Of a DNA stretch of 64,000 nt, positions 2,948 to 44,949 are shown piece by piece. The DNA comes from a virus, in IMG/VR virus record IMGVR_UViG_3300012347_000452, positions 1 to 64,000 of that record; one strand, written 5' to 3'. Each line of letters begins with the position of its first letter. Positions within the stretch are counted from its first letter, which is position 1. The position numbers and the translations under genes were made by a program. The notes below the pieces were generated by a model, which saw nothing but the letters and a program-made list of their open reading frames with translations, was not told the DNA's origin and made no database searches.

Positions 2948-5900
2948 TCAATAGCCCTTGGCCGACCACGAGAAGCTGCCGCTCACTCGCGCGCCAGCCG
3001 CGTCGTAGAGCATCACCTTGAAGCCCGCTGCGTTGGGCACGTCCACGAAATCGTAGAGCGCATAGCGAGCGGTAGAGCCTAGGGCAATCGACAGCTCGAC
3101 CGCCACGATGTCGATGAAGGGCGAACCGAATCGGATCAGGGTGCCCGCACCATCAGGCACACGCACGCCGGAGGCGTTGTTCGGGTTGGCGTTGGTGATC
3201 GTCACGCCGTTGATCACGGCGCTGGTGCCGGTCACTGCATCGGTGGCGCCTGCGACGGCCATGCCAGCCTCGTTGCGCACCTTGGCGTCGAGCTTCACGT
3301 TCAGCTTGGTGAGACGGTACAGGGACAGGTTGTCGCCCGAGACCGTGAAGCGGACCTTGACGAACTGGAAGTTGTTGACGAACACCGACGAGATGCCGTT
3401 GTAGTCGGTCCAGGCGTCGCCTGCGTTCAGCTTGACGCTGATGTTGATCGTCACGGTGGGCGAGCCCGCCACGACGTTGCCGGTCGGTGTGACCGTGATC
3501 TTGGTGCCGCCGATCGGCGTGCCGTAGTCGATGACCTCTTCATAGAAGCCGGGGCTGTTGGCGGGCTGGATGAAGACGGGGTAGCCGGCTGCGATCTGGG
3601 CGGCCGGAGTCGTCCACGAGCGGCTCGTGAAGTGCTGCTCGAAGGTCTCCGTGGTGTTGACCGGCAGGATGTAGCTGCCGTCGGTGTCGAGCACCATGTT
3701 GGACTTGGTGCCGGCGAACGTCAGGTCGTTGTTGGCCTTGAGCGAGTAGTCGGGCGGCTGGCTGACGCTGGTCGTCACCTCGCCAGGTGTGCCCACGTTG
3801 CCCGCGCTGTCGATACCGGCCACCCAGTAGGTGTAGGTGCCCGCCACGGTCTCGAAGACGGTGGTGAACCCACCGGCTTTCTGGCCGATCGACGTGGCGG
3901 TGGCCCAGGTGGCACCTCGACGCAGCTCGTTGGAGACCACGGGCAGCGTGCCGGTGGGCTGAGTCCAGTAGAGCAGCACGTTGTTGTCCACGACCTGCTG
4001 AGTGATGTTGGGCTTGGACGGTGCGGAGATGTTGAGTGCGGCCGAACCGGCTGCGCCGACATTGCCGTTCACGTCGATGGCAGCCACCCACCACGTCCGC
4101 GAGCCGAGCCACTGGGCCTTGGTCGAGATGGTGGTGCCCTTGACGCGCCCCAGCACCGTGCCGGCTGCCCAGGAGCTGCCGTAGCGGATTTCGTATTCAT
4201 CGATCGGGAGCGTTGCGGCAGGGTCCGTCCAGGTGAGCTTGAACTCATCGAGCACGAAGGTGCCGCTCACGGTCGGCGCCACTGGCGCGGTGATCGACAC
4301 CAGCGTGGAGCCGGCCGTGCCCACGTTGCCGTTCACGTCTCGTGCGGCGATCCAGTAGGTCCGGTTGCCCAGCCACTCCACTGGTGCGCGGTAGGTGGTG
4401 GACAGCGTGGTGGCGACCACAGTGCCGGCAGCGAAGGAAGCGCCGTGACGAATCTCGTATTCTTTGATCGGCAGCGTGGAGCTCGGGGCGGTCCAGGTGA
4501 GTTCGGCCTTGGCCACAACCACAGTTGAGGAGACGCTCGGGGCGCCAGGTGCGCTCACGTTGACCGCAACCGACGCGGAGGCGCCGAACTGCTTGTTGGT
4601 ATCGACTGCCGTCACCCACAGCGTGCGCGAGCCCAGCCAGGTGAGTGGCAGCGTGATCGTGGTGGTGTTGACCTTGCCGATGATCTCGCCCGTCGCCCAG
4701 TCGGCGCCAAAGCGGATGTCGTAGTAGGAGATGTCGAGCGAGCCGTTGATGGCCGACTGCCAGCTCAGAGTGGTGCTCGCCTGCGCGATCGAGGCGCTCA
4801 GGCTGGTCGGGGCGCTGTAAGCGGTGTAGGTGACGACACGCGAGCCGGAGGTGCCGTAGTTGCCTGCACTGTCGATCGCCGCGACATGGAAAGTCTTGCT
4901 GGAGGTCCAGTTGACCGGAATCGAGTAGAGACGATCGGAGGTGGTGCCCACGACCGTGCCGGTGGCCCAGGTCGCGCCCTCGCGAACCTCGTACAGACGG
5001 ATCGGGAGTGAACCCAGTGCCGGTGCCGCCCAGGTCAGGATCGCGTTGCCGTCCTTGAACTGGTGCGCCACGCTCACCGCGCCGGGGCCGCTGATGCCGT
5101 TCACATAGGTGCCGATGGCGCCCACGTTGCCGTTCACGTCGGTGGCCCGAACGGTGAAGGTGGCTGACGTGGACCATGTCACGCCCAGCGTCAGGGTGGT
5201 CGTGTAGGCCTTGCCCACCAGAATGCCGGTCTCCCAGGTGGCGCCCCGGCGAATCTCGTAGAAGTCCACCGGCAGCGTCTGCGCGGCATCGGACCACGAG
5301 ATCGTGGCCTGGTCCTGGTCGTAGGTGGCGGTGAAGCCGCTCGGTGCGATCGGCGCCACGACGGTGATCGCGTGCGAGCCTGCGGTGCCGACGTTGCCGT
5401 TCAAATCGATGGCGGCCACCCAGAAGGTGCGCGAACCGAGCCAGTTGATCGGGATGGTGAGCTGGTTGCCGCTGATGGAGCCGATCTCGACGCCGTTGGC
5501 GAAGGTCGAGCCGTAGCGCACCTCGTAGGAGGCGATCGGCAGGGTGCTCGACGGGGTGGACCAGTCGAACGTGAAGGTCGTGCCCTTCTTTGCGCTCGTC
5601 ACCACGGTGGCGGCAGGAAGGTTGAACACGGCACTCACCGATGTGGGTGTGCCGACGCTGCCCGCTGTATCGACGGCCGCGACCCAGATCAGTTGGGTTG
5701 CAGTCCATGCAACGGGCGTCTTGTAGGACAGGTCGGTCGTGGTGCCGACAGTGACGGCGCCCGCCCAGGTCGAACCCCGCTTGATGATGTAGCCGCCCAC
5801 GGGGAGCGAGCCTGCGGCAGCCGCCGTCCAGGTGAGGACGATGTCGGCGCGCGAGTAGGAGTAAGTGGGCGTGACGGCCCCAGGGGGTGCGATCGTGGCT

Positions 5901-27581: not shown

Positions 27582-28517
27582 TCACAGATACTGGGCCGAC
27601 AGCTTCGAGAGGTCCAAAGGCTGGTCGGCGGGTTGGTTGTCGAAGGCGATCACGGGCACGCGCACGGGCAGCTTCGAGACGTTCTTCTCGGGACTGGCGT
27701 CCGGATTCAGGTAGACCCCATACAGGGGACTGGCCAGCACGAGCTGCTGAAGCGACTTGACCAGATACCCGATCTCCATGTTGTCGCGCCGATCCTCGCC
27801 CCGAAAGCGAGCGTTGCCCGTCTTCTCCAGGGCCGAGCAGGCGTAGTAGAACTTGCGCATCTCGGCTTCGCACTTGGCGCGCACCGCCGGCGTCATCCGC
27901 TTGATCTCGTCCATCACGCCCATGAAGTCGGACGGGTTGGCATCGAACCAGCGGCGAAAGAACACCACGCCCTTGTCGTAGTTGGCGCTGCGCTTCGGTT
28001 TGGTGAACCGGATGCCGGCCTTGGCCGCGAACGGGTTGAACTTGCTCATCGACGACTGGAACTCGATCACGTCGCAGCCGGTCATCCGCATCATGATGTT
28101 CTGCATCCGATAGGCGATGCCGGCGCCCCGGTACATGGTGTCCAGCACCAGGCGGGAGTTCGTGCAGGCGTGGTCGTTGATCCAGTAGGCGCGGGTGCGG
28201 TTGATCAGGCGGCTGTCCATGCCGCCGGTGTTGGGCTTCAGGTGCTTGAAGACCTCGTTGCGGCCGCTCAGAAGCATCTTGGGCACCGTCATGACGCCCA
28301 CGCCGATCACGCGCTTGCTTGCGCCATCGTCGAGCACACAGCGGTAAATCTTCGGGCCGATGCCCAGGGACTCGGCCTTGTAGTGGAGCTCGTGGAGCAG
28401 GTTCCAGTCATCGATGTCGCCGCGCTCGACGTAGATGCTCTCCAGCAGCGACAGGACGTGGTTCTCGGGTACCTTGCGGCGCTCGATGAGGATGTCGGGG
28501 TTGTCGGTCAGGATCAT
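27582..28517 (-). CDS. GNAT-fold (Mom-like) acetyltransferase associated with an ABC ATPase
   Basis: Start at MILTD; LHY, NSRLVLDTMYRGAGIA (acetyl-CoA motif), SSMSKFNPFAAKAG. Confidence 0.7.
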   Translation of the reverse strand: MILTDNPDILIERRKVPENHVLSLLESIYVERGDIDDWNLLHELHYKAESLGIGPKIYRCVLDDGASKRVIGVGVMTVPKMLLSGRNEVFKHLKPNTGGMDSRLINRTRAYWINDHACTNSRLVLDTMYRGAGIAYRMQNIMMRMTGCDVIEFQSSMSKFNPFAAKAGIRFTKPKRSANYDKGVVFFRRWFDANPSDFMGVMDEIKRMTPAVRAKCEAEMRKFYYACSALEKTGNARFRGEDRRDNMEIGYLVKSLQQLVLASPLYGVYLNPDASPEKNVSKLPVRVPVIAFDNQPADQPLDLSKLSAQYL

Positions 28518-28789
28518 GCTCGCCCTTTGCTCATCACGTTGCCGTAGAACCAGATGGCGCTGGCGATGCCCAGGCACCCACCGAGCGTGGAGATGGCCAG
28601 CACGGTGAGCGAGCCGCTCGCGGCGTACTTGACGAAGATGAACTGGGACAGGCTGATGCCCGCCGAGGTCATGACGGCCGCCAGGTAGCGGCCCGCCACG
28701 ACGTTGCGCGACTGCAAGCCCAGCAGAAAGACGACCGTGAAGGCGCCCGCAAAGATGATGGCGGCGTCCGCCAGGCACAACTCAGGCAT
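28514..28789 (-). CDS. Small three-helix membrane protein
   Basis: VFLLGLQSRNV, three hydrophobic segments, 4-nt overlap with the next gene. Confidence 0.7.
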   Translation of the reverse strand: MPELCLADAAIIFAGAFTVVFLLGLQSRNVVAGRYLAAVMTSAGISLSQFIFVKYAASGSLTVLAISTLGGCLGIASAIWFYGNVMSKGRA

Positions 28790-29093
28790 CGACGAAGGCC
28801 AGAATCTTGGCGTCGGTCTGCTCGCCCGTCATGCGGCCGGTCTCCCGACCCATCGAGAAGCGCACGAGGGTGGGCACCGAGCGGATGTTGGTCTTCATCG
28901 CGGCGGCTGCGGCGTGATAGACGTTCACGTAGGCGACGTTCATCACCGCTGCCCCTTCCAGGCGCTCGATGGCGGCCTTGAAGCGCCCGCACGGGGCACA
29001 GTTGGGCGACGAGAAGAGCACGAACGACTTGGCGCCGTCCTCTTCGCTCCAGGAACGCAGGATCGCCTGCTCGAAGGTTTCCTGATCGGTCAT
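28782..29093 (-). CDS. Thioredoxin-like protein
   Basis: FSSPNCAPC, IRSVPTL..F..G. Confidence 0.85.
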   Translation of the reverse strand: MTDQETFEQAILRSWSEEDGAKSFVLFSSPNCAPCGRFKAAIERLEGAAVMNVAYVNVYHAAAAAMKTNIRSVPTLVRFSMGRETGRMTGEQTDAKILAFVDA

Positions 29094-29368
29094 TCGATCA
29101 CCTGCCAGTCTTCGGCGAGCATGTCGCTCTGGCTGGCCAGCCAGCCGGTCAGCACTTTCTTGTCGGCCGTGCGCATCCGGATGGTGCCCAGGGCTTCCAC
29201 CGAGCCGCCGTTCTCTTCAGCGAGTTGCTTCAGATGAGGCTCCTTGCACCACTCGGCAGGAACCGTCGCGGCTGGCATCAGCCACAGGTACATGCCCTTG
29301 CCGTTCCAGCCGGCGCGGCTGACTTTCTTGCCCTGCTTGAGGGCTTCAATGGCCTGTCCAAAATTCAT
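29090..29368 (-). CDS. DUF2829 / Tad2-like immune-signal sponge
   Basis: MNFGQAIEALKQGKKVSRAGWNGKGMYL..GWLASQSDMLAEDW. Confidence 0.85.
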   Translation of the reverse strand: MNFGQAIEALKQGKKVSRAGWNGKGMYLWLMPAATVPAEWCKEPHLKQLAEENGGSVEALGTIRMRTADKKVLTGWLASQSDMLAEDWQVIE

Positions 29369-30027
29369 GGGTTCTCCTTGTATGTGTCCGGCGTGCGGAC
29401 GATTTCGATCTTTTCGCGATAGCGCTTCTCGATGTAGAGGTTGGGCGCCAGGTCGGGCACCATGTCGGTGTGGGTTGTGGCCACCATCAGCGTCGCACCC
29501 ATCTTTCGGGCGATCTTCTGGAGGTTGAAGGCGATGACCTTGGCGGTCGTGCGATCCAGCACGGCCAGGAACTCGTCTGCGATCCAAACCTTCGCGCCCG
29601 ACTCGATCAGCTTGGCCAACTTGAAGCGGTAGCGCTGGCCGTCGGAGAGCTCCTGGGGCTTGCGCACGAAGAGGTAGGCGTCGTTCAGCCCCGCGATGGA
29701 CAGCAGGTTGAGCGCGGCGCTGGTGTCACGGCCGATCTGGTCGATCAGCGGCTTGGTGGCGTCGAGCGGCACCTCGTCGATGTCCGAAACTTGCAGGCCC
29801 TTTGCGGACATCTGCACCTTCAGCTCATGCAGTGCCAGGGACTTGCCCGAGCCGGATTGGCCCGTGATGTAGACCACGTCGCCCTGATCGATCTCGATGG
29901 GCTGGTTCTCGAAGACCACGAACTCCTTGTCGTCCAGGCCCAGCCCGAAGGCTTCGGCGATCTCAAGCACCCGGTCGGTGCGGCTGACGTGCGACTTGAA
30001 TCGTCGGTCCAGGTGGTAAGTGCTCAT
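29365..30027 (-). CDS. Stand-alone ABC ATPase
   Basis: GQSGSGKS, LSDGQRYR signature, WIADEF, ATTH. Confidence 0.9.
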   Translation of the reverse strand: MSTYHLDRRFKSHVSRTDRVLEIAEAFGLGLDDKEFVVFENQPIEIDQGDVVYITGQSGSGKSLALHELKVQMSAKGLQVSDIDEVPLDATKPLIDQIGRDTSAALNLLSIAGLNDAYLFVRKPQELSDGQRYRFKLAKLIESGAKVWIADEFLAVLDRTTAKVIAFNLQKIARKMGATLMVATTHTDMVPDLAPNLYIEKRYREKIEIVRTPDTYKENP

Positions 30028-30152
30028 ATCCGGCGGTCCCTCCAATAGATGCTGATGAGACGGATGCCGACCCACAGGCCGAAGAGCGAGAGCATCACGC
30101 CGGGGATGGCCAGGATGGACAGGGCCACGAAGAGGGGGAATGGAACGATCAT
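30024..30152 (-). CDS. 42 aa membrane peptide
   Basis: MIVPFPLFVALSILAIPGVML..., ATGA overlaps at both ends; below the ORF-track cut-off. Confidence 0.55.
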   Translation of the reverse strand: MIVPFPLFVALSILAIPGVMLSLFGLWVGIRLISIYWRDRRI

Positions 30153-30811
30153 TCTTGACTCACGGGTGACTGAGCGTCCATGACGCTTTTGATGAACTTC
30201 ACGAAGGCGTCGGCGCCGGTTGCGCCCATCTCCGCTTCGATCTGGGCCATGAACCGGGCCACATGACGTTCGTCGGCGCCAGGAATCTCCTTGAAGCCGA
30301 GCGCCTTGTCGATCTTGACGGACCGAGCATCGACCTCGGCGACCTTCTGGGCACTCTCTTCGCCCTGTCGGGCCACCTCGACCTCGATGTCGTCCACGAA
30401 CGCATCGGCGTTGAAGTCGCCCAGGTCGGCCTCCATGAATTCGAGCTCCTTCTTGTCGAAGATGCCTTCGAGGTCGAAGTCCAGGTCTGCGAGCTCCTTC
30501 TGGAGGATGGCGCTGTCGATGTCGGACAGAGCCACGCGGTTGTCGGCCAGGCGGTAGGCGCGCTGGGCGGCTTCCGACAGGTTATCGATCACCTTGATGG
30601 GTACGTCCTTGAGTCCCAGCTTGATCGCGGCCAGGCGCCGGCCGTGGCCCGCGAGGATCACGCCCTTCTCGTTCACGACGATGGGGTTGCCGACCCAGCC
30701 GAACTCCTTGATGGAGTGGGCGATCTTCTCGACCTGCTTGTCGTTGTGAATCTTGGCGTTCTGCTCGTAGGGGATGATCGTGTCGATCGTCCAGGTCTTG
30801 GTCTTGCTCAT
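30149..30811 (-). CDS. ParB/Srx N-terminal domain protein
   Basis: PYEQNAKIH..SIKEFGW..ILAGHGRRLAA..YRLADNR. Confidence 0.9.
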   Translation of the reverse strand: MSKTKTWTIDTIIPYEQNAKIHNDKQVEKIAHSIKEFGWVGNPIVVNEKGVILAGHGRRLAAIKLGLKDVPIKVIDNLSEAAQRAYRLADNRVALSDIDSAILQKELADLDFDLEGIFDKKELEFMEADLGDFNADAFVDDIEVEVARQGEESAQKVAEVDARSVKIDKALGFKEIPGADERHVARFMAQIEAEMGATGADAFVKFIKSVMDAQSPVSQE

Positions 30812-30984
30812 GCTGCGTTTCTCCAGAAGTCCTTGAACTCCTCGATGGTCATGTCCTCGACATCGGAAGTGCGGTCTTCCTCTTCTTCGTAGGGCTCGAA
30901 ATTGCAGGCGTCCTCGCACTCTTCACACTGGAAGGGGTCGAACGCCTTGTTCATGCAGTCTTCGCACTCGGGAAACTTGTTCAT
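30808..30984 (-). CDS. Small acidic Cys-rich (Zn-binding) protein
   Basis: CEDC..CEEC..C followed by a D/E-rich tail; GAGG RBS. Confidence 0.65.
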   Translation of the reverse strand: MNKFPECEDCMNKAFDPFQCEECEDACNFEPYEEEEDRTSDVEDMTIEEFKDFWRNAA

Positions 30985-30997
30985 GGCCTTGACCTCC

Positions 30998-31651
30998 TCA
31001 GTGCTCTTCTCGCGAAAGGAGGTGGACCAGTGCGTTGCCGGCGTTAGAAAGTGAATCTTCATCGGTGAATCTCTGTTCTTTCATCGTCTTTTCGATCAAG
31101 TCAGTGATGACTGAGACATCATCCACAGGCACTTTGAAGCGCATGATCTGGTGGGTCTGTGCGGGCTTGGTCGCCGCGCTCTTGGGGAGTTCTTCATCAT
31201 CCGGGAGGTCAAGATCGTCCAGCGATATATTGACGCTTGAGAAGATCGACGCGAAGTCGCTTTCGGAGAACGGCATGAACGACGCCAATTCCTCAGCACC
31301 CACCCCGATGTCATCGAGCAGCTCGGCCAACTGGAGCGTGTCGTCGGCACCGTACCGGCCGTTGTCCACCAGGCTGATCTCTTTTGCCTTCTTGTCGGAG
31401 ATTCGGCCCAGGTTGACGACCGGCACCTCGGCGAGCTTCATCGATTTGGAGCCCTCCCAGCGATGCTGGCCACCGATGATCTGCAAGCCCGCGTCGGTCT
31501 CGCGCACCACGATCGGCTTGAACATGCCGAATCGCTCGATGGAGGCCTCCAGCTTCTGCTGGTTCTCGGGAGACACGACGTTCGTGTTCCAGGGGTTGGG
31601 TGAAAGGCTGCTCGGGGGCAGCATCTCGACCTTGATCTTGTTTGGGGTCAC
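30998..31651 (-). CDS. Second ParB/Srx domain protein
   Basis: PNPWNTN..SIERFG..IIGGQHRW..DNGRYG. Confidence 0.88.
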   Translation of the reverse strand: MTPNKIKVEMLPPSSLSPNPWNTNVVSPENQQKLEASIERFGMFKPIVVRETDAGLQIIGGQHRWEGSKSMKLAEVPVVNLGRISDKKAKEISLVDNGRYGADDTLQLAELLDDIGVGAEELASFMPFSESDFASIFSSVNISLDDLDLPDDEELPKSAATKPAQTHQIMRFKVPVDDVSVITDLIEKTMKEQRFTDEDSLSNAGNALVHLLSREEH

Positions 31652-31713: not shown

Positions 31714-33267
31714 ATGACCACAAATTCTTCCGAAGCGGTGACGATCGCCCATAACGCAGTGATCGCAAAATTGCACGAACCCACCCGTGCCGTGAAACTG
31801 CGTGTTCAGTCGCTGCTGTCCTACAAGGTCGAGGGTGCCGAGCATTCCGCGTCCTTCAAGATGGGCAACTGGGACGGTCGCAGCTCCTTCTTCGACTTTC
31901 GCACCGGCACCTTCCCCGCCGGCTTCGTGAACTTCGTCTCGGGCAACCTGACCCGTGAGGGCTATCGGATCAACCGGGTCCGCAAGCCCCTGCCGCTGCC
32001 CCAGGGTCCGGAGAATCCGAAGGTCGATGTCTTCCCCGACGACCCGCGCTACGACTACCAGATGGACACAGTCAACAGGCTGCTCAAGCACGGCACGATG
32101 ATTGCCCAGGTGGCCACCGGTGGCGGCAAGTCCCGCATCGCCCGCCTGGCGTTCATGCGCATCAACCGCCCCACCCTCTTTCTCACCACGCGCGGCATCC
32201 TCATGTACCAGATGAAGGAGACGTTCGAGAAGGACTTGGGCATTCCCTGCTCGGTGCTGGGTGACGGCCAGTTTGGCCACACCGACAAGGACGGCCGCCA
32301 GTTCATCAAGAAGATGTGCGTGGGCATGGTGCAGACCCTGGTCTCGCGCCTGCAAGAGGCCAACCCCGACGATCCGGTGGACGTGCAGAATCGCCAGACC
32401 GCGATCCGCAACCAGACCATCGCCCTGCTCGGCAAGTTCGAGTTCGTGATCGGCGAGGAAGCCCACGAGGCGTCGGGCAACAGCTATTACGAGATTCTTC
32501 GCCACTGCAAGAACGCCCACTACCGCCTGGCCATCACCGCGACGCCCTTCATGAAGGAAAGCGAGGAGTCGAACATGCGCCTGATGGCCGCGTTCGGCTC
32601 GATCGGCATCAAGGTCTCCGAGAAGCTCCTGATCGACCGGGGCATCCTGGCCAAACCCATCTTCAAGATCATGAGCCTGGCCAACAAGCCCAAGAACCTG
32701 CTGCGCGGCACACCGTGGCAGGGTGCGTACCGGCTGGGCGTGGTCAACAACGAGGACCGCAACAACGCCATCGCGTTCGAGGCTCACCGGGCGGCTGCGA
32801 ACGGCATGTCGGTGATGATCCTGATCCAGCAAAAAGCGCATGGCCACCTCCTCGAGGCTCTGCTGGGCAAGCGCGGGCTCAAAGCGGTGTTCATCGACGG
32901 GGACAACAACCAAGACGAGCGCAAGAAAGCGCTCTCAGACCTCGCCAACGGGTACATCGACGCGCTGATCGGTTCGACCATCCTGGACGTGGGCGTTGAC
33001 GTGCCAGCGGTCGGAATGGTGATCCTGGCAGGTGGGGGCAAGGCCGAGGTCGCGCTGCGCCAGCGCATCGGTCGCGGTCTGCGCGCCAAGAAGCGTGGCC
33101 CGAACATCGCGCTCATCGTGGACTTCTATGACGAGCACAACCGCTACCTGAAGGACCACAGCTTTCAGCGCCTCTCGATCATCAAGGGCACCGAGGGTTT
33201 CGGCGAGAACATCCTTCCCGATGGTGCTGATTTCGACTACAAAGCGCTCGGCCTGGCCACAAAATGA
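31714..33267 (+). CDS. Superfamily 2 helicase (UvsW/Res-like)
   Basis: ATGGGKS, EEAH (DEAH variant), TATP, GVDVP, QRIGRGLR. Confidence 0.92.
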   Translation: MTTNSSEAVTIAHNAVIAKLHEPTRAVKLRVQSLLSYKVEGAEHSASFKMGNWDGRSSFFDFRTGTFPAGFVNFVSGNLTREGYRINRVRKPLPLPQGPENPKVDVFPDDPRYDYQMDTVNRLLKHGTMIAQVATGGGKSRIARLAFMRINRPTLFLTTRGILMYQMKETFEKDLGIPCSVLGDGQFGHTDKDGRQFIKKMCVGMVQTLVSRLQEANPDDPVDVQNRQTAIRNQTIALLGKFEFVIGEEAHEASGNSYYEILRHCKNAHYRLAITATPFMKESEESNMRLMAAFGSIGIKVSEKLLIDRGILAKPIFKIMSLANKPKNLLRGTPWQGAYRLGVVNNEDRNNAIAFEAHRAAANGMSVMILIQQKAHGHLLEALLGKRGLKAVFIDGDNNQDERKKALSDLANGYIDALIGSTILDVGVDVPAVGMVILAGGGKAEVALRQRIGRGLRAKKRGPNIALIVDFYDEHNRYLKDHSFQRLSIIKGTEGFGENILPDGADFDYKALGLATK

Positions 33268-33340
33268 GTCAAGTTTGTTGGTCAGTGGTGACATAGGCGT
33301 GCCTTTGGTTTACAGTGGGCACTTCAACAGAAAGGCCACC

Positions 33341-33535
33341 ATGAACCATGCCCTCATCCTCAACCTGGCCATTGTCGCCCTGATCGTTGCGGCGCTTCTG
33401 ATCACGAGCAATCCGCTTGCCTTGCTGGCCGTCGCCTTCATCCGCGACATGCCGTTCGGGCTGCTTGCTCAGGATGATGAAGAAGAAGCTGATGAAAAGG
33501 GACGCCCTATCGGTTTTGTTCATCATGAGGACTGA
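33341..33535 (+). CDS. Small membrane protein
   Basis: AAGG RBS, hydrophobic N-half, acidic tail ending PIGF. Confidence 0.6.
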   Translation: MNHALILNLAIVALIVAALLITSNPLALLAVAFIRDMPFGLLAQDDEEEADEKGRPIGFVHHED

Positions 33536-33591
33536 AGTTCTCTGATTCACGACCACTTTTGCCATTTCGGTTCGTTTGAACCGTGCTCCAT

Positions 33592-33618
33592 AAGCCCCGT
33601 CATCGGGGCTTTATTTTT
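33592..33618 (+). terminator. Intrinsic terminator
   Basis: AAGCCCCG/CGGGGCTT stem plus T-tract. Confidence 0.75.
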
Positions 33619-33652
33619 GTCACAAATTTTTGTATAAGGTTTGCTGATTTCT

Positions 33653-33661
33653 TGCTATACT
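33653..33661 (+). promoter_or_regulatory. Extended -10 promoter (TGcTATACT)
   Basis: AT-rich intergenic region 40 nt upstream of the 33700 ORF. Confidence 0.55.
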
Positions 33662-33699
33662 ACATTTAGCACTTTTGCTGAAACATACAAGGAAACACC

Positions 33700-34017
33700 A
33701 TGACTGATGCTGAAACCAACCCCGTCGAACCCACGACCGCCGAAGTCAAATCCGTCCCCAAGCGCACCGCCATCGTTCTGGAACCCGAAATCCAGGACCA
33801 GGTCGCCGTTCTGGCTCGCACGCACAAGCTCCCCCAGGGCCTCGTGATCCAGACCATGATCGACATGGTCCGCGACAAACCCGAGTTCATCGCCGCACTG
33901 CAAGCCAAGCGCGTGGAGAAGGTCAGCAACCGCACCGGCAAGACCGCTCTGCTCAAGCGTCTGGCCAAACTCTCGGCCGAAGAGCTGGAAGCGCTCACCA
34001 GCAACATCAAGGTCTGA
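33700..34017 (+). CDS. Ribbon-helix-helix-like DNA-binding protein
   Basis: KRTAIVLEPEIQDQVAVLARTHKLPQGLVIQTMID; AAGGA RBS. Confidence 0.65.
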   Translation: MTDAETNPVEPTTAEVKSVPKRTAIVLEPEIQDQVAVLARTHKLPQGLVIQTMIDMVRDKPEFIAALQAKRVEKVSNRTGKTALLKRLAKLSAEELEALTSNIKV

Positions 34018-34021
34018 GCCT

Positions 34022-34414
34022 GTGACCCCCGAACAGTACCTGGCACTCGCTCGTCGCAGCGGGGCCACTGTTTACACGAACCGCCACTACCCGCTTCAGC
34101 CGGCGGTGGCATTCAGCCACTCCGCGTGGTTGAAGTTCTGCGCCCTGATCGATCAGTCACCCGTGACCCACGCGGATGATCCATGCCCAGGGTGCAGGCC
34201 GGGGGGTGTCTGCCGTACTCCGAGCTGCGGACGCTTGTCGAAGATGAACCTGGCCAAAGCCACGAACGTCGATGACCGGCTCTCTGAAGCGCTTGAGAAG
34301 AACGGTGGCAAGACCGGCTGGCCACCTGGACTGCTCCAGGACGACTCTCGCGGGCTCTCGAAGTGGTTTGCCACTCGTCCCGATGCTCTCTACACACTGA
34401 GGAACTCAAAATGA
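34022..34414 (+). CDS. Hypothetical protein
   Basis: Operon packing; CPGC..C..C motif. Confidence 0.55.
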   Translation: MTPEQYLALARRSGATVYTNRHYPLQPAVAFSHSAWLKFCALIDQSPVTHADDPCPGCRPGGVCRTPSCGRLSKMNLAKATNVDDRLSEALEKNGGKTGWPPGLLQDDSRGLSKWFATRPDALYTLRNSK

Positions 34415-34617
34415 CCGAAGGCGAAATTATCTTCATTGGCGGCATCTTCGGCACGATCGTGCTCGTTGTCGCGATGGTTCTGGGCTACCACCTTTACACC
34501 AACTCGTTGAACCGCCAGGCCTACCTCGAGTGTCTGAGGACCGCCGAGCGAATCAACGAGAATGACCACAGCCAAGGCGTTCGCATCACATCGGTCCCAA
34601 GCTGCTATCTGCGATGA
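34411..34617 (+). CDS. Small membrane protein
   Basis: GAGG RBS, N-terminal TM helix, ATGA overlaps. Confidence 0.6.
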   Translation: MTEGEIIFIGGIFGTIVLVVAMVLGYHLYTNSLNRQAYLECLRTAERINENDHSQGVRITSVPSCYLR

Positions 34618-34931
34618 ACACCTCGGCACACAAGCCGGAGCTCTGGCAGTTCCGATGGTTGAACCCAAGCGGGGAACCCCAACCCGCCTCGGTACTGGAG
34701 TGGAAGATCGTCGAACCGCTCTGGAACCAAACGGTCGAGCAAAAGTGCGCGGAGCTTCTCGCCTTCCGGTACAAGAACAAGCCGATGTACGAGGTCAGGG
34801 GGCTCTACGCCCATTCGCCATTCGCGAACAGCGAACAGACCGTCGTCATCGACCGAGCCTGCTTCGAGCGGGGCTGTCCCTGCCATGACGTTGGCGACAA
34901 AGACGCCGTCATCGTTCGGAGCGTCCCATGA
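34614..34931 (+). CDS. Hypothetical protein
   Basis: ATGA overlaps on both sides. Confidence 0.6.
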   Translation: MNTSAHKPELWQFRWLNPSGEPQPASVLEWKIVEPLWNQTVEQKCAELLAFRYKNKPMYEVRGLYAHSPFANSEQTVVIDRACFERGCPCHDVGDKDAVIVRSVP

Positions 34932-35113
34932 CCGACCAACCGATCCTGGGCTACGACAAAGCGGGCCAACCCATCTACGAGACCAAGCGGGGCTTCATCT
35001 ACACGGCCGCGTGCATCCTGTGCTCTGAGTGCAAGACCGTGATCCGGGGAATGGGCGGCCCGAAGCACGGAAGCACCTGCGTGCCCTGCCACGACGCGAG
35101 GAAGCACTCATGA
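34928..35113 (+). CDS. Small Zn-finger protein
   Basis: CSEC..CVPC; ATGA overlaps. Confidence 0.6.
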   Translation: MTDQPILGYDKAGQPIYETKRGFIYTAACILCSECKTVIRGMGGPKHGSTCVPCHDARKHS

Positions 35114-35496
35114 GAGTTCTGGTGTGTGGTGGACGCGACTTCACCGACTCGGCTTTCGTGGACTGGGTGCTCGACACACTTCACAAGCGAAAGCCCATCA
35201 CGATCGTCATCCACGGGTGTGCACAGGGCGCTGACACGCTCGGGGAGAAATGGGCCGCCAGGCAGGACGGTGTCACCTCTTACGGGGTGCCTGCGGACTG
35301 GAAGAAGCATGGTCAACGTGCGGGGTTTGTGCGCAATCGACTCATGCTCGAACATGGCAAGCCAGAACTGATCGTTGCGTTCGAGGGAGGTGCCGGCACA
35401 CGGGACATGACGACTGCGGCGACAGCCGCCGGAGTCAAAGTCCTGTTCGCCGAGAAGCTCCGCTCTCACTTCGACGCAAGGCCGCCGTGGGAGTGA
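35110..35496 (+). CDS. SLOG family protein (DUF2493/YspA-like)
   Basis: MRVLVCGGRDF, IHGCAQGAD, PADWKKHG..RNRLM, AFEGGAGT. Confidence 0.88.
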   Translation: MRVLVCGGRDFTDSAFVDWVLDTLHKRKPITIVIHGCAQGADTLGEKWAARQDGVTSYGVPADWKKHGQRAGFVRNRLMLEHGKPELIVAFEGGAGTRDMTTAATAAGVKVLFAEKLRSHFDARPPWE

Positions 35497-35794
35497 TGTT
35501 CACCTATAAGGATAGAGGTATCGGGTATCGGGAAATGGGGGCCGGGGTGTGGGGTCTGGAGCCGATGTATAAGGATTGGTCCCTGGGGTCTGGGGCCTGT
35601 GTAAGGATCGGTCTGGGGAGGTGGAAGACGAGGAAGGGGTCGCTCACGCACCGATAGCTTTTTTCTAAGACTATCGGTTTCTCATAGGTTTTTACAATGT
35701 ATGCGCGATGACCATCACACCGAAAACACCTACCACAAAAAGACACCAATTGAAAGCATTATCTGACATAATTTTCACCTCTTTTTTGACAACC

Positions 35795-35818
35795 GACTGA
35801 CACTGTAAGGTGTCAGTC
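35795..35818. terminator. Inverted repeat at the transcription convergence point (probable terminator)
   Basis: GACTGACAC-tgtaag-GTGTCAGTC, 13 nt from the stop of the minus-strand gene. Confidence 0.55.
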
Positions 35819-35831
35819 AGTCACTCATGAA

Positions 35832-36512
35832 TTACTTATAAAAAGCAATAATTGCTTCAGCTTTGTCGTTTTGCTTGAATGATATCGCATCATTCTTTTT
35901 AGCTTTAATGACATTACAAATGTCTAAAAACCTAAGCATTTGACGCGATGACGACAATTGAGTCGTCGCGGTGTTTTCACTGACATTCAAGAGTGCTCGA
36001 ACATTCTGAACCTGTTCAGTCTCAGAGTAAACGACCGTTTTTGTAAGTGACATCAGACCTGACTTATTTGTCAGTGTTTCATTCTTTGTAAGATTGAAAA
36101 GAATGCTATTTGTATAAGGGTCTAACTCGCTTTTTTGCTTTGTTGCAAGTGCATAAATGCAATCGCGTATTTTGGTTATCACTTTCAACGCTACATAATT
36201 TTCTGAACCTTTAGTACCTGTTTTTATTGCATTTGCAAGAGTTACAAGCGATTCAGGTGAAGTAAAACCGTTTTTAATAACATGTTCGATTTGCACCGCA
36301 AAACGAGCACTTTTTATCTCATTCAAGTCTGAGATTATCGTTTTGCACTTTGCGTTTTCAGGTTGTGCTTTTCTGAACTCGCATGCATCAATGAATGCTT
36401 GCTGAATTGCTTTGTAGTCAACCGCTTGAACCGCGTCAACCGCTTGCACTACTAGTGGTGTCTTGGTGGTCTTGGTGGTCTTGGTGGTCTTGGTGGTGGT
36501 CTTGGTAGACAT
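35832..36512 (-). CDS. AT-rich protein with TKT-repeat N-terminus and putative C-terminal winged helix; distant paralog of 48295-49134
   Basis: GAGG RBS, 226 aa open frame in AT-rich DNA, motif alignment with the 48 kb ORF. Confidence 0.75.
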   Translation of the reverse strand: MSTKTTTKTTKTTKTTKTPLVVQAVDAVQAVDYKAIQQAFIDACEFRKAQPENAKCKTIISDLNEIKSARFAVQIEHVIKNGFTSPESLVTLANAIKTGTKGSENYVALKVITKIRDCIYALATKQKSELDPYTNSILFNLTKNETLTNKSGLMSLTKTVVYSETEQVQNVRALLNVSENTATTQLSSSRQMLRFLDICNVIKAKKNDAISFKQNDKAEAIIAFYK

Positions 36513-36899
36513 AGAAACCTCATAAGTTGAATTGTGCAAAATCGCACTTTATGCGCACGAAAACCATGCGCATAAAATGAGACTTTAGATTTTTAAAGAA
36601 CTTCAGTGATGCACCGCGATGAGTGCATGAGTCAAATTATACATGCTTTTTTTGTGCAAACGGTGACTTTTTTCACCTTGCACAAAAAAAATGTGAAAAG
36701 ACCTGATTTTCAGCAAATCGATTTAAACGCGTTTTAAGGTGCTTTTTAGCGGTTTTTGTGCGAGTTGATACAGATGCACCAGACACCTCGAAAAAATCGA
36801 TTGTAGAGCGTTCTGGTGGGTTTGAGTACTTTTGTGCAACGACTCAATTTTCACAAAATAGTTGGTACGGTTTTTGAATGCACGCAAAGTGCATTTTGT

Positions 36900-37110
36900 G
36901 ACTGAACAGTATTTTTCCTACTGAACGGTCTGGTTTTCGACTGAACCGACCAGTCGGCAAATAGGCGGTCTGGTTTGCTACTGAACGGTCTGGTTTCTGA
37001 CTGAACTGTTCAGTAGGCGACTGAACGGTCTATTCGGCGACTGCACCGACCAGTAGGCGACCAGGCGGTCGTTCGGCAACTAGGCGGTCGGCAGGCGACC
37101 GAGCGGTCTG
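36900..37110. repeat. Degenerate ~20-bp tandem array (iteron/operator-like), about 10 units
   Basis: CTGAAC at 36902, 36921, 36941, 36981, 37001, 37021; ACTGAACTGTTCAGT palindrome at 37000-37014. Confidence 0.85.
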
Positions 37111-37139
37111 CGCACGACCTGCGCTCGTCCTAACCTGCG

Positions 37140-37400
37140 CGTACTTCGTCCTAGCCGTACCCCTACTTCGACCCAGCCGTACTCCTAAACTCGTCCTTAC
37201 TTCGGTCCACCCGTACTCCGAGGCATCCCTAGGCAAGCCCTTGGATCGTTCCTTGGACGCATCCTTGGATGACGCCCTAGGCAAGCCCTTGGATCGCCTC
37301 TTGGATCGTTCCTAGGCTTCGTGTGCCCCTACGCACACTTCGTTTCGCCCATACATCGCCTAACTTCACCCTACCCGTACTCCGAGGCATTCCTAGGGCG
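37140..37400. repeat. CCWWGG/CCGTACTCC array 1
   Basis: CCWWGG at 37228, 37239, 37251, 37263, 37276, 37287, 37311, 37392. Confidence 0.85.
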
Positions 37401-37412
37401 AGAACGATGCTG

Positions 37413-37437
37413 AAAAACCGAGCTTGGGTGCTCGGTT
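37413..37437 (-). terminator. Cassette terminator 1
   Basis: AACCGAGC-6-GCTCGGTT plus T-tract. Confidence 0.7.
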
Positions 37438-37443
37438 CGGTGC

Positions 37444-37761
37444 TTACATGTCCAAGTCAGTCGCGCTCATGTTGGACATCTCAGCAAGCGCTTCACGGTA
37501 GGAGTCGTGTTTGCTGAATGCGATCAAGTCCCCTACCTTGTCGTCAACCGAGTTGGTGATTCCAATGAACCAGAACTCTGTGTTTCCATTTGTGATCTCA
37601 ACGATCGCGTAGTCGTTTCCATCGTTCGCGGTGAATAGGACTCGAACCTGCTCATCTTGAGTTTTCCAAAAGCTCATTAGCTGTCGAAAGATGGAAAGGT
37701 TGTGACCGTAGGGGTTGGTATGAAATGCGTCGCGAAGGTCGCTGAAAGTTTGGAAGCGCAT
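37444..37761 (-). CDS. Small acidic hypothetical (early cassette A)
   Basis: Own TATAAT promoter and terminator. Confidence 0.7.
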   Translation of the reverse strand: MRFQTFSDLRDAFHTNPYGHNLSIFRQLMSFWKTQDEQVRVLFTANDGNDYAIVEITNGNTEFWFIGITNSVDDKVGDLIAFSKHDSYREALAEMSNMSATDLDM

Positions 37762-37780
37762 AGGAGCTTTCGGTGAAGTA

Positions 37781-37807
37781 CTACAAAATCGTAGAACCTT
37801 GATTATA
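37781..37807 (-). promoter_or_regulatory. -10 TATAAT plus GATTTT-loop leader hairpin (cassette A)
   Basis: TATAAT at 37802-37807; CTAC-GATTTT-GTAG. Confidence 0.7.
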
Positions 37808-37860
37808 ACTTCACCGATGTTGAAAAATGTAGGGTGAATTCAAACGCCCGAACGTCCAAC

Positions 37861-37933
37861 GCCTACCGTGGCCTAGGAATGCCTAGGCCGAGATTCCTAG
37901 GCCGGTGTCCTTGGCCTGGTTCCTAGGCCGAGG
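37861..37933. repeat. CCWWGG array 2
   Basis: CCWWGG at 37872, 37882, 37896, 37909, 37922. Confidence 0.85.
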
Positions 37934-37943
37934 TTTGTAGTTT

Positions 37944-37968
37944 GAAAACCGAGCATGGACGCTCGGTT
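37944..37968 (-). terminator. Cassette terminator 2
   Basis: AACCGAGC-6-GCTCGGTT. Confidence 0.7.
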
Positions 37969-37978
37969 CTCGGACCGC

Positions 37979-38266
37979 TTATTCTGATCGGACCGCGACG
38001 TTCAGCATCGCTTCAAGTCCGACCTCGTCGAACTTCTTCAACCAGGACGAATACGCTCTGGTAGCAGGACCGTTCATCTCGTTCGGACGCTCACCGCTGA
38101 TCTTTGATCGGACGCTAGAGAGCATCACACCGAGCGGTTTACTCGGACGCTTGTCACAATCGCGTTGGTAAGTAAATCGGACGAACGGTTCATATTTGCA
38201 AACCGCGCTAGGGTTTTCACTTTGACCAACAGCGATGATGGTGATCGGAGATTCTTTCTTGCTCAT
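37979..38266 (-). CDS. Hypothetical (early cassette B)
   Basis: ATGA-coupled to the upstream ORF; terminator follows. Confidence 0.65.
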   Translation of the reverse strand: MSKKESPITIIAVGQSENPSAVCKYEPFVRFTYQRDCDKRPSKPLGVMLSSVRSKISGERPNEMNGPATRAYSSWLKKFDEVGLEAMLNVAVRSE

Positions 38267-38472
38267 GCTGCGCTTTCAGGACGTGTCATGGTGAAGCTCT
38301 GACCAACGAGGTCGTAGGGCAAATCTTCACACTCGTCACACAGGTCGGACGCGACATAAGGTAAGACGGACGCTGGTAGCAACGACTCGAAGGTCGGACC
38401 ACCATCTTGCGTGAACACGCAGGCGAAGGTGTCGAAGTGAGAATCGTAGGACTTGATGAGAATATTTAGCAT
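38263..38472 (-). CDS. Small acidic hypothetical (early cassette B)
   Basis: Directly downstream of the promoter-hairpin. Confidence 0.6.
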   Translation of the reverse strand: MLNILIKSYDSHFDTFACVFTQDGGPTFESLLPASVLPYVASDLCDECEDLPYDLVGQSFTMTRPESAA

Positions 38473-38490
38473 CGGACGCTTTCAAAGAAT

Positions 38491-38519
38491 CACTGCAAAA
38501 TCACAGTGAACCGATTATA
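38491..38519 (-). promoter_or_regulatory. -10 TATAAT plus GATTTT-loop leader hairpin (cassette B)
   Basis: TATAAT at 38514-38519; CACTGT-GATTTT-GCAGTG. Confidence 0.7.
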
Positions 38520-38569
38520 ACATCGCGTTATGTGGAAAATAACGGACATTTTCAACCGCCCTATCACCG

Positions 38570-38735
38570 ACCCTAGGCTTTCCCCTTGGATTTCTCCTTG
38601 GACTACGCCTAGGCATCCCTTGGACCGTTCCTAGGCTCGTTCCTAGACTCATGCCTGCTTCTCCGTGGCCGTACTCCTAGGCCCATCCCTGCTTCTTCCT
38701 ACCCGTACTCCTAGGCTTCTCCGTGGCCGTACCCG
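38570..38735. repeat. CCWWGG/CCGTACTCC array 3
   Basis: CCWWGG at 38572, 38584, 38596, 38608, 38618, 38630, 38676, 38710. Confidence 0.85.
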
Positions 38736-38742
38736 AACATGA

Positions 38743-38765
38743 GAAAACCGAGCCTAAACTCGGTT
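38743..38765 (-). terminator. Cassette terminator 3
   Basis: AACCGAG-6-CTCGGTT. Confidence 0.65.
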
Positions 38766-38777
38766 CATTGGAAGCGA

Positions 38778-39008
38778 TTAGGCTTCTGCGTAATCTTCTT
38801 CGGACGCATTGAGCGCCCACAGAGCAGCGTCAAGCCCTGGTTTCGCATACCGAACGAGTCCAACCTGGCCCTCAAACGCGACCAGGTATTTCCAACCTCC
38901 GTCGTTCAGAGGAACCGCACACAGGGTCTCTCCCGTGTTGAGGTCCACAGTTGTGCCCATCTGAGCTTGCGTGAGTTGGGCGGGAGTGAGGGCGATGATT
39001 TTGTTCAT
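38778..39008 (-). CDS. Hypothetical (early cassette C)
   Basis: AGGA RBS; terminator follows. Confidence 0.65.
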   Translation of the reverse strand: MNKIIALTPAQLTQAQMGTTVDLNTGETLCAVPLNDGGWKYLVAFEGQVGLVRYAKPGLDAALWALNASEEDYAEA

Positions 39009-39028
39009 GGATGTTTCCTGGTGATTTG

Positions 39029-39265
39029 TTAGGCGTTCAAGGTGGGCACGTACATGTCACTCACGGTGATTCCCCATGAGACGAAGTGACCGTGACAGAG
39101 GACTTGCTCCAACCAATTGATTGCCTCCTCATCTGTGAAAAGATGGAAGACGTTGAAGATGCGCTCGGGCGCTTCCGCTTTTACCGCGTAGGGTAGTGAC
39201 TCATGGAACATGGACTTGAGAACATTGCGGGCTTTGTCCGCATCGCAGGTGGAAGAGAAGGACAT
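39029..39265 (-). CDS. Hypothetical (early cassette C)
   Basis: AAGGAG RBS, start at MSFSS. Confidence 0.65.
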   Translation of the reverse strand: MSFSSTCDADKARNVLKSMFHESLPYAVKAEAPERIFNVFHLFTDEEAINWLEQVLCHGHFVSWGITVSDMYVPTLNA

Positions 39266-39291
39266 GGTGGTCTCCTTATATAAGAAGGGTG

Positions 39292-39320
39292 CAGTGCAAA
39301 ATCGCACTGACTCAAATATA
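39292..39320 (-). promoter_or_regulatory. -10 TATATT plus GATTTT-loop leader hairpin (cassette C)
   Basis: CAGTGC-GATTTT-GCACTG, same spacing as cassettes A and B. Confidence 0.65.
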
Positions 39321-39339
39321 ACCAATGAACTCAGGACAA

Positions 39340-39875
39340 ACTTATAGGAACGAGGGAACCTTATAGGGAATCTTATAGGGGGAAGGACGACGCTCTCCTA
39401 GGCATCCCACGGACGAATCCATGCTTTTCCCCTAGGGAGATACTTTCCTAGGCCGGTGCCTTGGAACGAGCCTAGGGAATGACGCCTAGGGATGCCGAGG
39501 ACGACGTGCCCACACTTCTTCCTACCCGTACTCCAAATCAGGCCATACAGGCGTCGCCCCGTACTCCGAGGCTCGTTCTCCCTAGGGAAGAAGCAGGATG
39601 GCTCGGGCGGCGAGATTTTTTCCTGTAAGGTTTTGGGAAAGTGAGGATGAAATGATGAGGGGAATACTTCGCCCACACATTGGTTCCACATTGGTTCCAC
39701 ATTGACCCTTTCTCCGTAGCCTGACTCTCTTCCCTACTCCTCTCATCCATAGGCTTCTCCCTAGGCTCATCCTTCTCCGTATGGTTGTTCGTCTCCGTGG
39801 CCTGGTCCTTCTTGTTCGTGTTGGTGACGTTGATCTTCCTATTCGTCGTTACTGTCCTCTTCCCGTACTCCGTGA
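39340..39875. repeat. CCWWGG/CCGTACTCC/CTTATAGG array 4 (non-coding)
   Basis: CCWWGG at 39397, 39431, 39447, 39459, 39471, 39485, 39581, 39760; 12-bp tandem CACATTGGTTCC near 39676-39705. Confidence 0.8.
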
Positions 39876-40313
39876 TCTTGGTTGGGATTGTTCGGGCTTT
39901 TTCTCTCCGACGTATATCTGTATGTAGTAGGAGTAGAGACTCCTATTGTTCTTTGTTCGGGGAATCGTTCGGGCTTTCTTCTCTCAGGCTGTTGTCGGGG
40001 TCGAGCTCTTTAAACGCGATTTGAGCGCTTTCCGGTCGTTGGTGGTGTCAGCGGTCATCTTGAGTGTCTGGCACGCTTCTATGGTCGTTCTGATGCGCTG
40101 GCCAAGGTTCTTTTTCGGTGGTTGGTTCTGAGGTTGCTTATAGGTAGGGAACCTTATAGATAGGCTATTCTTTGGTTAGTAGTCGGGACTTAGTGCCTTC
40201 CTGTTAGCGTTAGCGGAAAAGTCCTTTAAAATCAACAACTTACGTTCCTAGGCCTGAACCTTATAGGGAAAAGCCTCTGCAATGAGAGGCTTTCAAGGGT
40301 TTTGGCCTGATTC

Positions 40314-44903: not shown

Positions 44904-44919
44904 AAATCGCTCCGTGTCA

Positions 44920-44949
44920 TGTTCAAAATCGAACAATTCAATTGTCACA
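44920..44949 (-). promoter_or_regulatory. Extended -10 (TGtGACAAT) plus GATTTT-loop hairpin
   Basis: TGTTC-GATTTT-GAACA; near-identical arrangement at 46371-46400. Confidence 0.6.

Follow-up and report, generated by a model that had tools for sequence, protein, structure and literature searches.

The 64,000-nucleotide window analyzed here is the first part of the 107,050-bp genome in IMG/VR virus record IMGVR_UViG_3300012347_000452, and at positions 35497 to 40300 it contains a 4.8-kb island in which genes and spacers are written in different DNA words. The island is read, tentatively, as a conserved set of immediate-early accessory genes whose open reading frames (ORFs) are purged of the half-sites of CC-NN-GG arrays, the arrays themselves being bound by a 226-amino-acid (226-aa) winged-helix protein. 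This early accessory-gene island with its dedicated DNA-binding regulator is possibly situated in the terminal repeat of the genome. Portal, capsid, terminase, and helicase proteins place the genome in a group of ~105- to 120-kb siphophages and phage-plasmids that includes SSU5, Rhizobium RHEph10 and B1VFA, Pseudomonas nickie, Xanthomonas JGB6, and Acinetobacter plasmids of the ZW85p2 type, with protein identities of about 45 to 56%. The same layout of the island is found in the close relatives L002, L005, and L006 and also in nickie and B1VFA, and part of it is present in Acinetobacter plasmid ZW85p2. A close nucleotide search against phages gave no near match to the island, and the sole match in a distant search was to 92 bp of Limnohabitans phage DC31. 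Pfam and PHROG scans of all island ORFs retrieved no informative family, and an Rfam scan of the island gave no credible match.

The clearest signal is a zone that lacks the trinucleotides GGA, TCC, GGC, and GCC (Table 1), the sole stretch of at least 150 bp free of these words in the 107,050 bp. A first-order Markov model based on the zone's own dinucleotides predicts about 30 of them, where none was found, so that a zone of this kind, placed near 35640 by the original prediction, is borne out. All 28 GG steps in the zone lead to T, 26 of them directly and the others through one further G. In about 20 loci the homologous gene lies in a similar zone of 830 to 1560 bp, which in some of them is interrupted by one or two violations, and the word pattern is thus kept in relatives. 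These include IMG/VR and metagenome relatives in which the gene has 31 to 50% G+C, as well as Acinetobacter ZW85p2 and nickie; in B1VFA the zone is also found, around a putative counterpart of the gene, and in SSU5 there is no such zone in the 19 kb examined. Pooled over 12 loci, the observed-to-expected ratios are 0.02 for GGC/GCC, 0.07 for GGA/TCC, and 3.0 for GGT/ACC, and the dinucleotides GC and CG are over-represented, which shows that the constraint falls on GG/CC steps without a following T. Because the exclusion spans both strands, all frames, and the noncoding flanks, it acts at the DNA level, and a codon or tRNA cause was rejected on the same grounds. Avoidance of a CRISPR protospacer-adjacent motif was also rejected, since ACC/GGT is still present. 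The zone persists in relatives whose genes have 45 to 50% G+C and is therefore not a by-product of low G+C content.

The excluded words reappear in the spacers. As the original prediction had described for motif-rich arrays between the cassettes, the arrays carry 21 of the 24 CCTAGG sites of the genome together with 9 CCTTGG sites, all in one orientation, and among the 42 CC-NN-GG sites 21 of 41 spacings measure 10 to 13 bp. CCTAGG in the source genome is never preceded by A and never followed by T, while the zone permits only ACC/GGT, so that the flanks of the array word are the exact complement of what the zone allows. Counted per 200 bp, the excluded words number 0 in the zone, 6 in the cassette 3 ORF, 6 to 7 in the cassette 2 ORFs, and 12 to 15 in the cassette 1 ORFs, which confirms a stepwise relaxation to the right. 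The arrays hold 21 to 29 per 200 bp versus a genome mean of 16.6 (standard deviation, 4.0), and 29 is the genome maximum. Relatives show the same alternation, with depleted ORFs and enriched spacers.

The gene inside the zone occupies the same syntenic place across the whole group. Its 226-aa product matches no Pfam family and two PHROG families, both of unknown function, and in the ESM Atlas it falls into uncharacterized clusters of 91, 747, and 513 members, with structure rows of the ArsR type. The AlphaFold2 (AF2) model, with a predicted local distance difference test score of 86, consists of a disordered K/T-rich tail, a five-helix N-domain, and a C-terminal winged helix in which a helix-turn-helix (HTH) is followed by a beta-hairpin wing; the gene had been singled out as AT rich and winged-HTH-like from the DNA, and the model agrees. 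Residues 125 to 226 resemble winged helices of the MarR/ArsR type (1yyv, 6ez1, 3cjn, and others) with Z scores of 8.2 to 8.9, which are only moderate, and root mean square deviations of 1.9 to 2.6 over 70 to 80 residues. A Foldseek search of the protein against the PDB gave no match at an E value of ≤0.001. The presumed recognition helix, TQLSSSRQMLR, is nearly invariant in homologues down to 36% identity. At the N terminus, 9-bp tandem repeats at 36456 to 36506 (minus strand) encode a (T-K-T)n tail, the copy number and residues of which differ among homologues; the 108-kb metagenome contig L048 ends within this repeat.

That the protein reads the arrays is suggested mainly by co-variation between array word and recognition helix. 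All loci with a helix of the form TQxSS[ST]R have CCTAGG upstream (4 to 21 sites), or CCAAGG in one locus, a pairing that holds at 35 to 40% protein identity and in the Acinetobacter plasmid. In the four loci with TQxSQ[IV][RK]Q the array word is CCATGG (5 to 24 sites), L007 carries both array words, and nickie, with a very different and barely alignable protein, has CCGCGG in the same layout. Spacers that load a protein, as the original prediction put it, are the best-supported part of its interpretation and fit this co-variation.

Between the arrays lie three cassettes, in which the −10 element, leader hairpin, small ORFs, and terminator with a shared stem are all present where the original prediction had placed them. 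The −10 hexamers are TATATT, TATAAT, and TATAAT, and the extended −10 form at P2 (TGTTATAAT) is repeated in several relatives. A consensus promoter scan of the island missed the three cassette promoters because a −35 element is absent. A stem-loop with the loop GATTTT begins about 5 to 7 nucleotides (nt) past the −10 element in each cassette. The source genome has five such leader hairpins and relatives have 19 distinct ones, all with the loop G[AG]TTTT and with stems that vary by compensatory pairs (for example, ACTGC/GCAGT versus ACTGA/TCAGT). These features would fit a 5′-terminal mRNA stabilizer or a protein-binding site. The fifth hairpin lies outside the island, at 44912 to 44944 (minus strand) upstream of an early-region gene, which indicates a genome-wide device of early leaders. 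The terminators share the stem AACCGAG/CTCGGTT, with dG values from −11.7 to −18.6. Cassette genes are reordered among relatives: in the source genome the 105-aa gene, with homologues 69 to 70% identical in L004 to L006, is the cassette gene closest to the winged-helix gene, and in L002 it is the most distant.

Taken together, these features can be accommodated in the following scheme. Transcription by host RNA polymerase would start at three or four strong promoters of the extended −10 type, and each transcript would begin with its 5′ stem-loop and end at its own terminator, with the small accessory proteins made independently of each other. The 226-aa protein would bind the CC-NN-GG arrays lying between one terminator and the next promoter, where one site per helical turn would permit cooperative binding along one face of the DNA. 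Such binding may regulate or insulate the cassettes, and the simplest form would be a shut-off after the first burst, as exerted by Aca proteins on anti-CRISPR operons; alternatively, it may organize the DNA segment. Half-site words (GG followed by a base other than T) would be kept out of the coding DNA, most of all out of the gene of the regulator itself, a purge that would keep the protein confined to the arrays.

Several considerations count against this scheme. Early timing is drawn from the form of the promoters only. For a winged-helix dimer, 6 bp of palindrome make a short target; at least 20 sites per array are far above the number in ordinary operators, and a hexamer reader alone would not demand a purge of 3-mers over 1.3 kb, so that the exclusion is only loosely explained. 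Nor does the model account for the boundary element or for the variable 20-bp array. Furthermore, the switch to CCATGG is one evolutionary event and nickie is a second, so that the co-variation rests on one or two. A more far-reaching version, a DNA-level addressing system common to many ~105- to 120-kb phages and phage-plasmids, in which a fast-evolving winged-helix protein coats phased CC-NN-GG arrays at the terminal repeat and genes of restricted vocabulary, lacking GG before A or C on both strands, stay naked, is rather unlikely.

TABLE 1 Features of the island and their positions in the window
Feature	Position	Strand	Description
Left boundary element	35505-35694	−	Hairpin loop with AGTCTTAGA (~35650-35680), CCCCTTCCTC, three CCTTAYA motifs; ~31-35-nt spacing
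Exclusion zone (no GGA/TCC/GGC/GCC)	35633-36917 (1284 bp)	Both	39% G+C; GG solely as GGT
Hydrophobic 25-aa peptide ORF	35692-35769	−	GAGGTG ribosome-binding site; in zone, just downstream of winged-helix gene
226-aa protein gene	35832-36512	−	K/T-rich disordered tail, helical N-domain, C-terminal winged HTH
AT-rich noncoding leader	36513-36894		Inverted repeats, TTGCACA-type words, fourth leader hairpin 36528-36548
20-bp unit array	36895-37031/37100		GACTGAACGGTCTGG type; period 20, 6.9 copies
Array 4	37100-37410		CCTAGG/CCTTGG at ~12 bp; GGAGTACGG..CGAAGT units (minus-strand notation)
Cassette 3	37414-37810	−	−10 37802-37807; leader hairpin ~37780-37797; 105-aa ORF 37444-37761; terminator 37414-37438
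Array 3	37840-37940		Four CCTAGG and one CCTTGG in 60 bp
Cassette 2	37945-38525	−	Extended −10 TGTTATAAT 38514-38522; leader hairpin 38490-38509; terminator 37945-37969
Cassette 2 ORFs	38263-38472; 37979-38266	−	69 aa; 95 aa
Array 2	38545-38740		CCTAGG/CCTTGG at 10-12 bp; CCGTACTCC units
Cassette 1	38744-39325	−	−10 39315-39320; leader hairpin 39289-39306; terminator 38744-38765
Cassette 1 ORFs	39029-39265; 38778-39008	−	78 aa; 76 aa
Right noncoding tract	39330-40300 (~1 kb)		Three CTTATAGG repeats at promoter, further CTTATAGG motifs; CCTAGG array 39397-39581
Right tract, continued	39640-40000; ~40215-40245		Purine rich on minus strand; TTGATTTTAAAGGA hairpin

The word pattern could have arisen without any function, if the zone were a recently gained AT-rich gene that lost its GG steps by chance and the arrays were decayed tandem repeats. 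The zone has 39% G+C in a genome of 60% G+C, and the nearest database homologues of the 226-aa protein by tblastn are in AT-rich Acinetobacter plasmids. Even so, this explanation is scarcely credible, given that the expectation of about 30 words was derived from the zone's own composition, that the exclusion holds in L007, L010, and L020 (gene at 45 to 50% G+C) and in nickie, and that the syntenic position of the gene is shared by the whole group. A cause in defence, with GGA/GGC targeted by a host nuclease or by a DNA modifier of the phage, avoided by the first-expressed genes, and present as decoys in the arrays, agrees with the strand-symmetric exclusion that includes noncoding DNA and so acts on the DNA, with the graded relaxation over distance, which is real, and with the conservation of ParB-like and ABC-ATPase genes nearby. 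It is nevertheless very improbable. The rest of the genome holds GGA/TCC/GGC/GCC at full density, the arrays would be the best targets and yet are conserved, and no restriction or modification system is known to us that recognizes GG[AC], a target of 3 bp. What the genome is purged of instead is classical palindromes: 38 of the 64 6-bp palindromes are strongly avoided genome-wide (<0.16 of expectation), and 24 of the 64 are absent outside the island, among them CCCGGG and CCGCGG (78 expected for each) and CCATGG (33 expected). This avoidance suggests that the DNA lacks modification and that many type II systems exert pressure on it. Within 35836 to 39277 lie 13 of the 40 exceptions, making the island the least purged part of the genome. 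The host restriction target proposed in the original prediction is thus unlikely, as the signature of restriction, palindrome avoidance, is weakest in the island, and its phage-modifier target fares no better, as no modification pathway was found.

More weight, although still little, can be given to the left third of the island as an origin of replication or a module for plasmid maintenance. The winged-helix protein would then be an initiator or centromere-binding protein, the 20-bp units iterons, the AT-rich 380 bp an unwinding region, and the CCTAGG arrays copy-control or partition sites. Gene, AT-rich tract, and 20-bp repeats stand in classical order, and the layout is that of tandem 17- to 22-bp iterons, with at least 6.9 copies adjoining the AT-rich DNA and the gene; the 20-bp array had been noticed in the original prediction and is present. 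Many relatives, moreover, are extrachromosomal elements of ~105 to 111 kb. The array shares 80% identity with DNA of Limnohabitans phage DC31 next to five perfect DnaA boxes, and directly beside these boxes are found both the 20-bp unit and the GCTTATATAAG units known from relatives. In DC31 (L003), positions 4760 to 5090 comprise the five boxes followed by GCTTATATAAG repeats and 20-bp GACTGAACGGTCT units, likely the origin of this unrelated phage, and the shared unit hints at an origin element read by the host and at a Limnohabitans-like host. Centromeres of the ParR/omega type resemble arrays of sites phased at 10 to 12 bp, and the island shares with them and with iteron replicons the gene of a DNA-binding protein next to AT-rich DNA and short phased repeats. 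It differs from both in that no initiator or ParR/ribbon-helix-helix family signal was found and in that its arrays are spread over 3 kb between genes. Pfam gave no match to Rep_3 or another initiator family, and no Rep-type chain is among the top 50 fold matches of the 226-aa protein, which does not by itself exclude one. The protein has one winged helix, confined to its C-terminal half, and an all-helical N-domain, compared with the two winged helices of the Rep_3 type. The helix TQxSSSRQMLR is nearly invariant, yet the repeats beside the gene are wholly different among relatives, contrary to the joint change expected of an initiator and its iterons; DC31 has the repeats without a homologue of the protein, RepC of B1VFA is encoded 50 kb away, the source genome has an integrase, and virulent nickie-type phages retain the module. 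An origin or maintenance function is on balance distinctly unlikely.

The edges of the island are formed by conserved noncoding DNA. The G-run flank of the original prediction, at 35497 to 35640, is real and belongs to a conserved composite element that is G rich on the plus strand. There are 36 distinct copies of this left element in relatives, and an alignment of 28 diverse copies contains 18 invariant columns. AGTC-TAG, CCTTC-T, and CCTTA are invariant, and AGTC-TAG is followed by CCTTC-T, CCTTA, and TCCTTA at ~31- to 35-nt intervals. Single-sequence folds place AGTC-TAG in or near a hairpin loop, with a stem enclosing the motif in 27 of the 28 copies; RNAalifold returned no consensus pairs for the element, because the stems are out of register. 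Such deep noncoding conservation points to a cis site read by conserved machinery. An attP site was considered for the left element and rejected, as the integrase is 50 kb away and the element is kept in nonintegrating relatives. At the far right edge, the TTGATTTTAAAGGA hairpin is found in seven loci. The ~350 bp at 39640 to 40000, pyrimidine rich on the plus strand and purine rich on the gene-sense strand, contain no long ORF, and homologous purine-rich tracts of little conserved sequence occur in L002, L013, nickie, and ZW85p2.

Whether these edges mark the terminal repeat is a separate matter, and a location of the island there is an appreciable possibility that falls somewhat short of an even chance. 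The fuller proposal, in which the island itself is a long direct terminal repeat (DTR) or abuts the virion DNA end, the cassettes are pre-early genes, the left element and right tract are terminase or end-processing sites, and the arrays serve packaging or a T5-like pause in entry, is more doubtful. The opening point of the record is arbitrary, as an ORF spans both contig ends. Nearly all genes are on the minus strand, and the exception, a plus-strand block at 31714 to 35496 (helicase to YspA/SLOG protein), converges on the island, which thus sits at the break in gene polarity, a point in favor of a genome end. The left element is kept across phages with only 35 to 55% protein identity, the spacing of its motifs by roughly three helical turns is what a wrapped recognition site would lead one to expect, and the TerL protein is distantly like the T5-type TerL (28.6% identity over the ATPase domain; E value, ~1e−17). 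Avoidance of palindromes is relaxed ten-fold exactly at the island, as redundancy would allow; in B1VFA this relaxation is not clearly reproduced (3 seen, 1 expected; not significant). The terminal repeat of T7 is adjoined by repeat arrays that function in packaging. Fixed ends with long direct terminal repeats have been described for the relatives B1VFA (3,605 bp) and V1VFA-S (3,939 bp), without coordinates (PMC12509600), and the ends of Nican01 are given as "DTR (long)," likewise without coordinates (PMC11256456); the GenBank records of relatives were not opened at the termini. The distance from left element to right tract, ~4.0 to 4.6 kb, is near the size of these repeats, and in B1VFA the left element plus 3,605 bp falls within its 1.5-kb noncoding tract. 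Against this, about 8 kb of genes separate the left element of nickie from its helicase block. An enrichment of contig ends is seen in the island among relatives, four of them lying within the homologous right tract, and the contigs of L052 and L053 end within the neighboring gene. The breaks, however, occur at differing points inside the island (in the tandem repeat of the gene, in arrays, and in a cassette gene), which strain-level cassette variation would explain equally well, and this clustering was set aside as evidence for a terminus.

Phage T5 is a close parallel for such an end, being likewise a ~110- to 120-kb siphophage with a long terminal repeat (in the present group, one known from relatives). 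Its left repeat contains three conserved untranslated repeat regions between pre-early ORFs, and its small genes with host promoters alternate with noncoding direct and inverted repeats and palindromes (bioRxiv 10.1101/866236). The island has four arrays between its small ORFs, in a layout that is kept in relatives. Homologues of A1, A2, and dmp were not found by Pfam and PHROG scans of all island ORFs, and where the injection stop region of T5 has about eight paired DnaA boxes, TTWTNCACA occurs twice in the island (36533 and 38531), unpaired and without forming a cluster. A partition of trinucleotides between ORFs and spacers is not reported for T5, and the source phage, unlike T5, has an integrase. 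A further parallel is SPO1, with many short operons of small proteins, each with a strong host-type promoter and a ribosome-binding site, clustered as host-takeover operons within its terminal redundancy (PMC6873191). SPO1 is unrelated in host and sequence, the description of its operons mentions neither palindrome arrays nor a gene for a dedicated regulator, and the terminal segment is putative in the present genome. As for the first-injected genome end of the original prediction, an end near the island is plausible in view of the fixed ends of relatives, the size of the island, the polarity break, and the left element; the claim that it enters first does not fit, since the island is the least palindrome-purged DNA, the opposite of what is expected at a first-exposed end. 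Staged DNA entry, which has no support of its own, is graded as improbable.

The early accessory-gene reading has parallels of its own. Anti-CRISPR operons have strong early promoters and a neighboring HTH protein, Aca, that binds palindromes in the promoter and shuts it off. The island similarly combines presumably early small-gene promoters with the neighboring gene of an HTH protein, for which array binding is putative. An operator for Aca consists of two or three inverted repeats inside the promoter, whereas the island has 5 to 20 phased sites between its units; the aca gene shares the accessory operon, unlike the gene in the island, and no Acr or Aca homology was found for the island. PeSL cassettes of the T4 type are self-contained early units bounded by a conserved promoter and a stem-loop and shuffled among related phages. 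Self-contained units shuffled among relatives are also seen here, across the source genome and its relatives. The island differs from PeSL cassettes in the position of the stem-loop, which is in the 5′ leader and has a GAUUUU loop, in spacers that are long arrays, and in belonging to another phage family.

A trinucleotide pair completely missing across a gene together with its flanks is a rare sign, and a clean one, that selection acts on the words of the DNA instead of on protein. Phages of Rhizobium and Pseudomonas and the phage-plasmids of Acinetobacter all keep this exclusion, with the excluded words concentrated in the adjacent spacers. It points to a protein-DNA system hitherto unnamed, whose most interesting feature, the partition of trinucleotides, is unexplained. 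The carriers include ~110-kb phage-plasmids of Acinetobacter baumannii, some of them from clinical isolates, and phages under study for the biocontrol of plant pathogens. One protein, one word, and a natural swap of words provide experimental handles. The island also marks a site of fast-changing early accessory genes, which may include functions in anti-defence or host takeover. Were it the terminal repeat, it would offer a second model beside T5 for the organization of the leading DNA in a long-repeat siphophage, and if the addressing system were true, it would be a protein-organized genome end controlling expression and perhaps DNA entry or packaging.

Some further observations concern the island and its surroundings. 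The 25-aa hydrophobic peptide ORF in the zone is kept in the relatives L002, L006, and L052 and may encode a small membrane or toxin-like peptide. The genome carries genes for an integrase, a Pol III alpha-like polymerase, DnaB, ligase, and SbcCD. The integrase is of the tyrosine type (genome positions 85831 to 87120, minus strand), and the phage is described as temperate. A homologous island lies within a 450-kb Paraburkholderia contig of a metagenome-assembled genome (L047), and some members of the group probably integrate instead of living as plasmids. Between terminase and helicase, at 27582 to 31651 (minus strand), are encoded two proteins with ParB N-domains, two ABC-type ATPases, a thioredoxin, and a small winged-helix protein, and this ParB/ABC-ATPase block is syntenic in SSU5, nickie, B1VFA, and ZW85p2.

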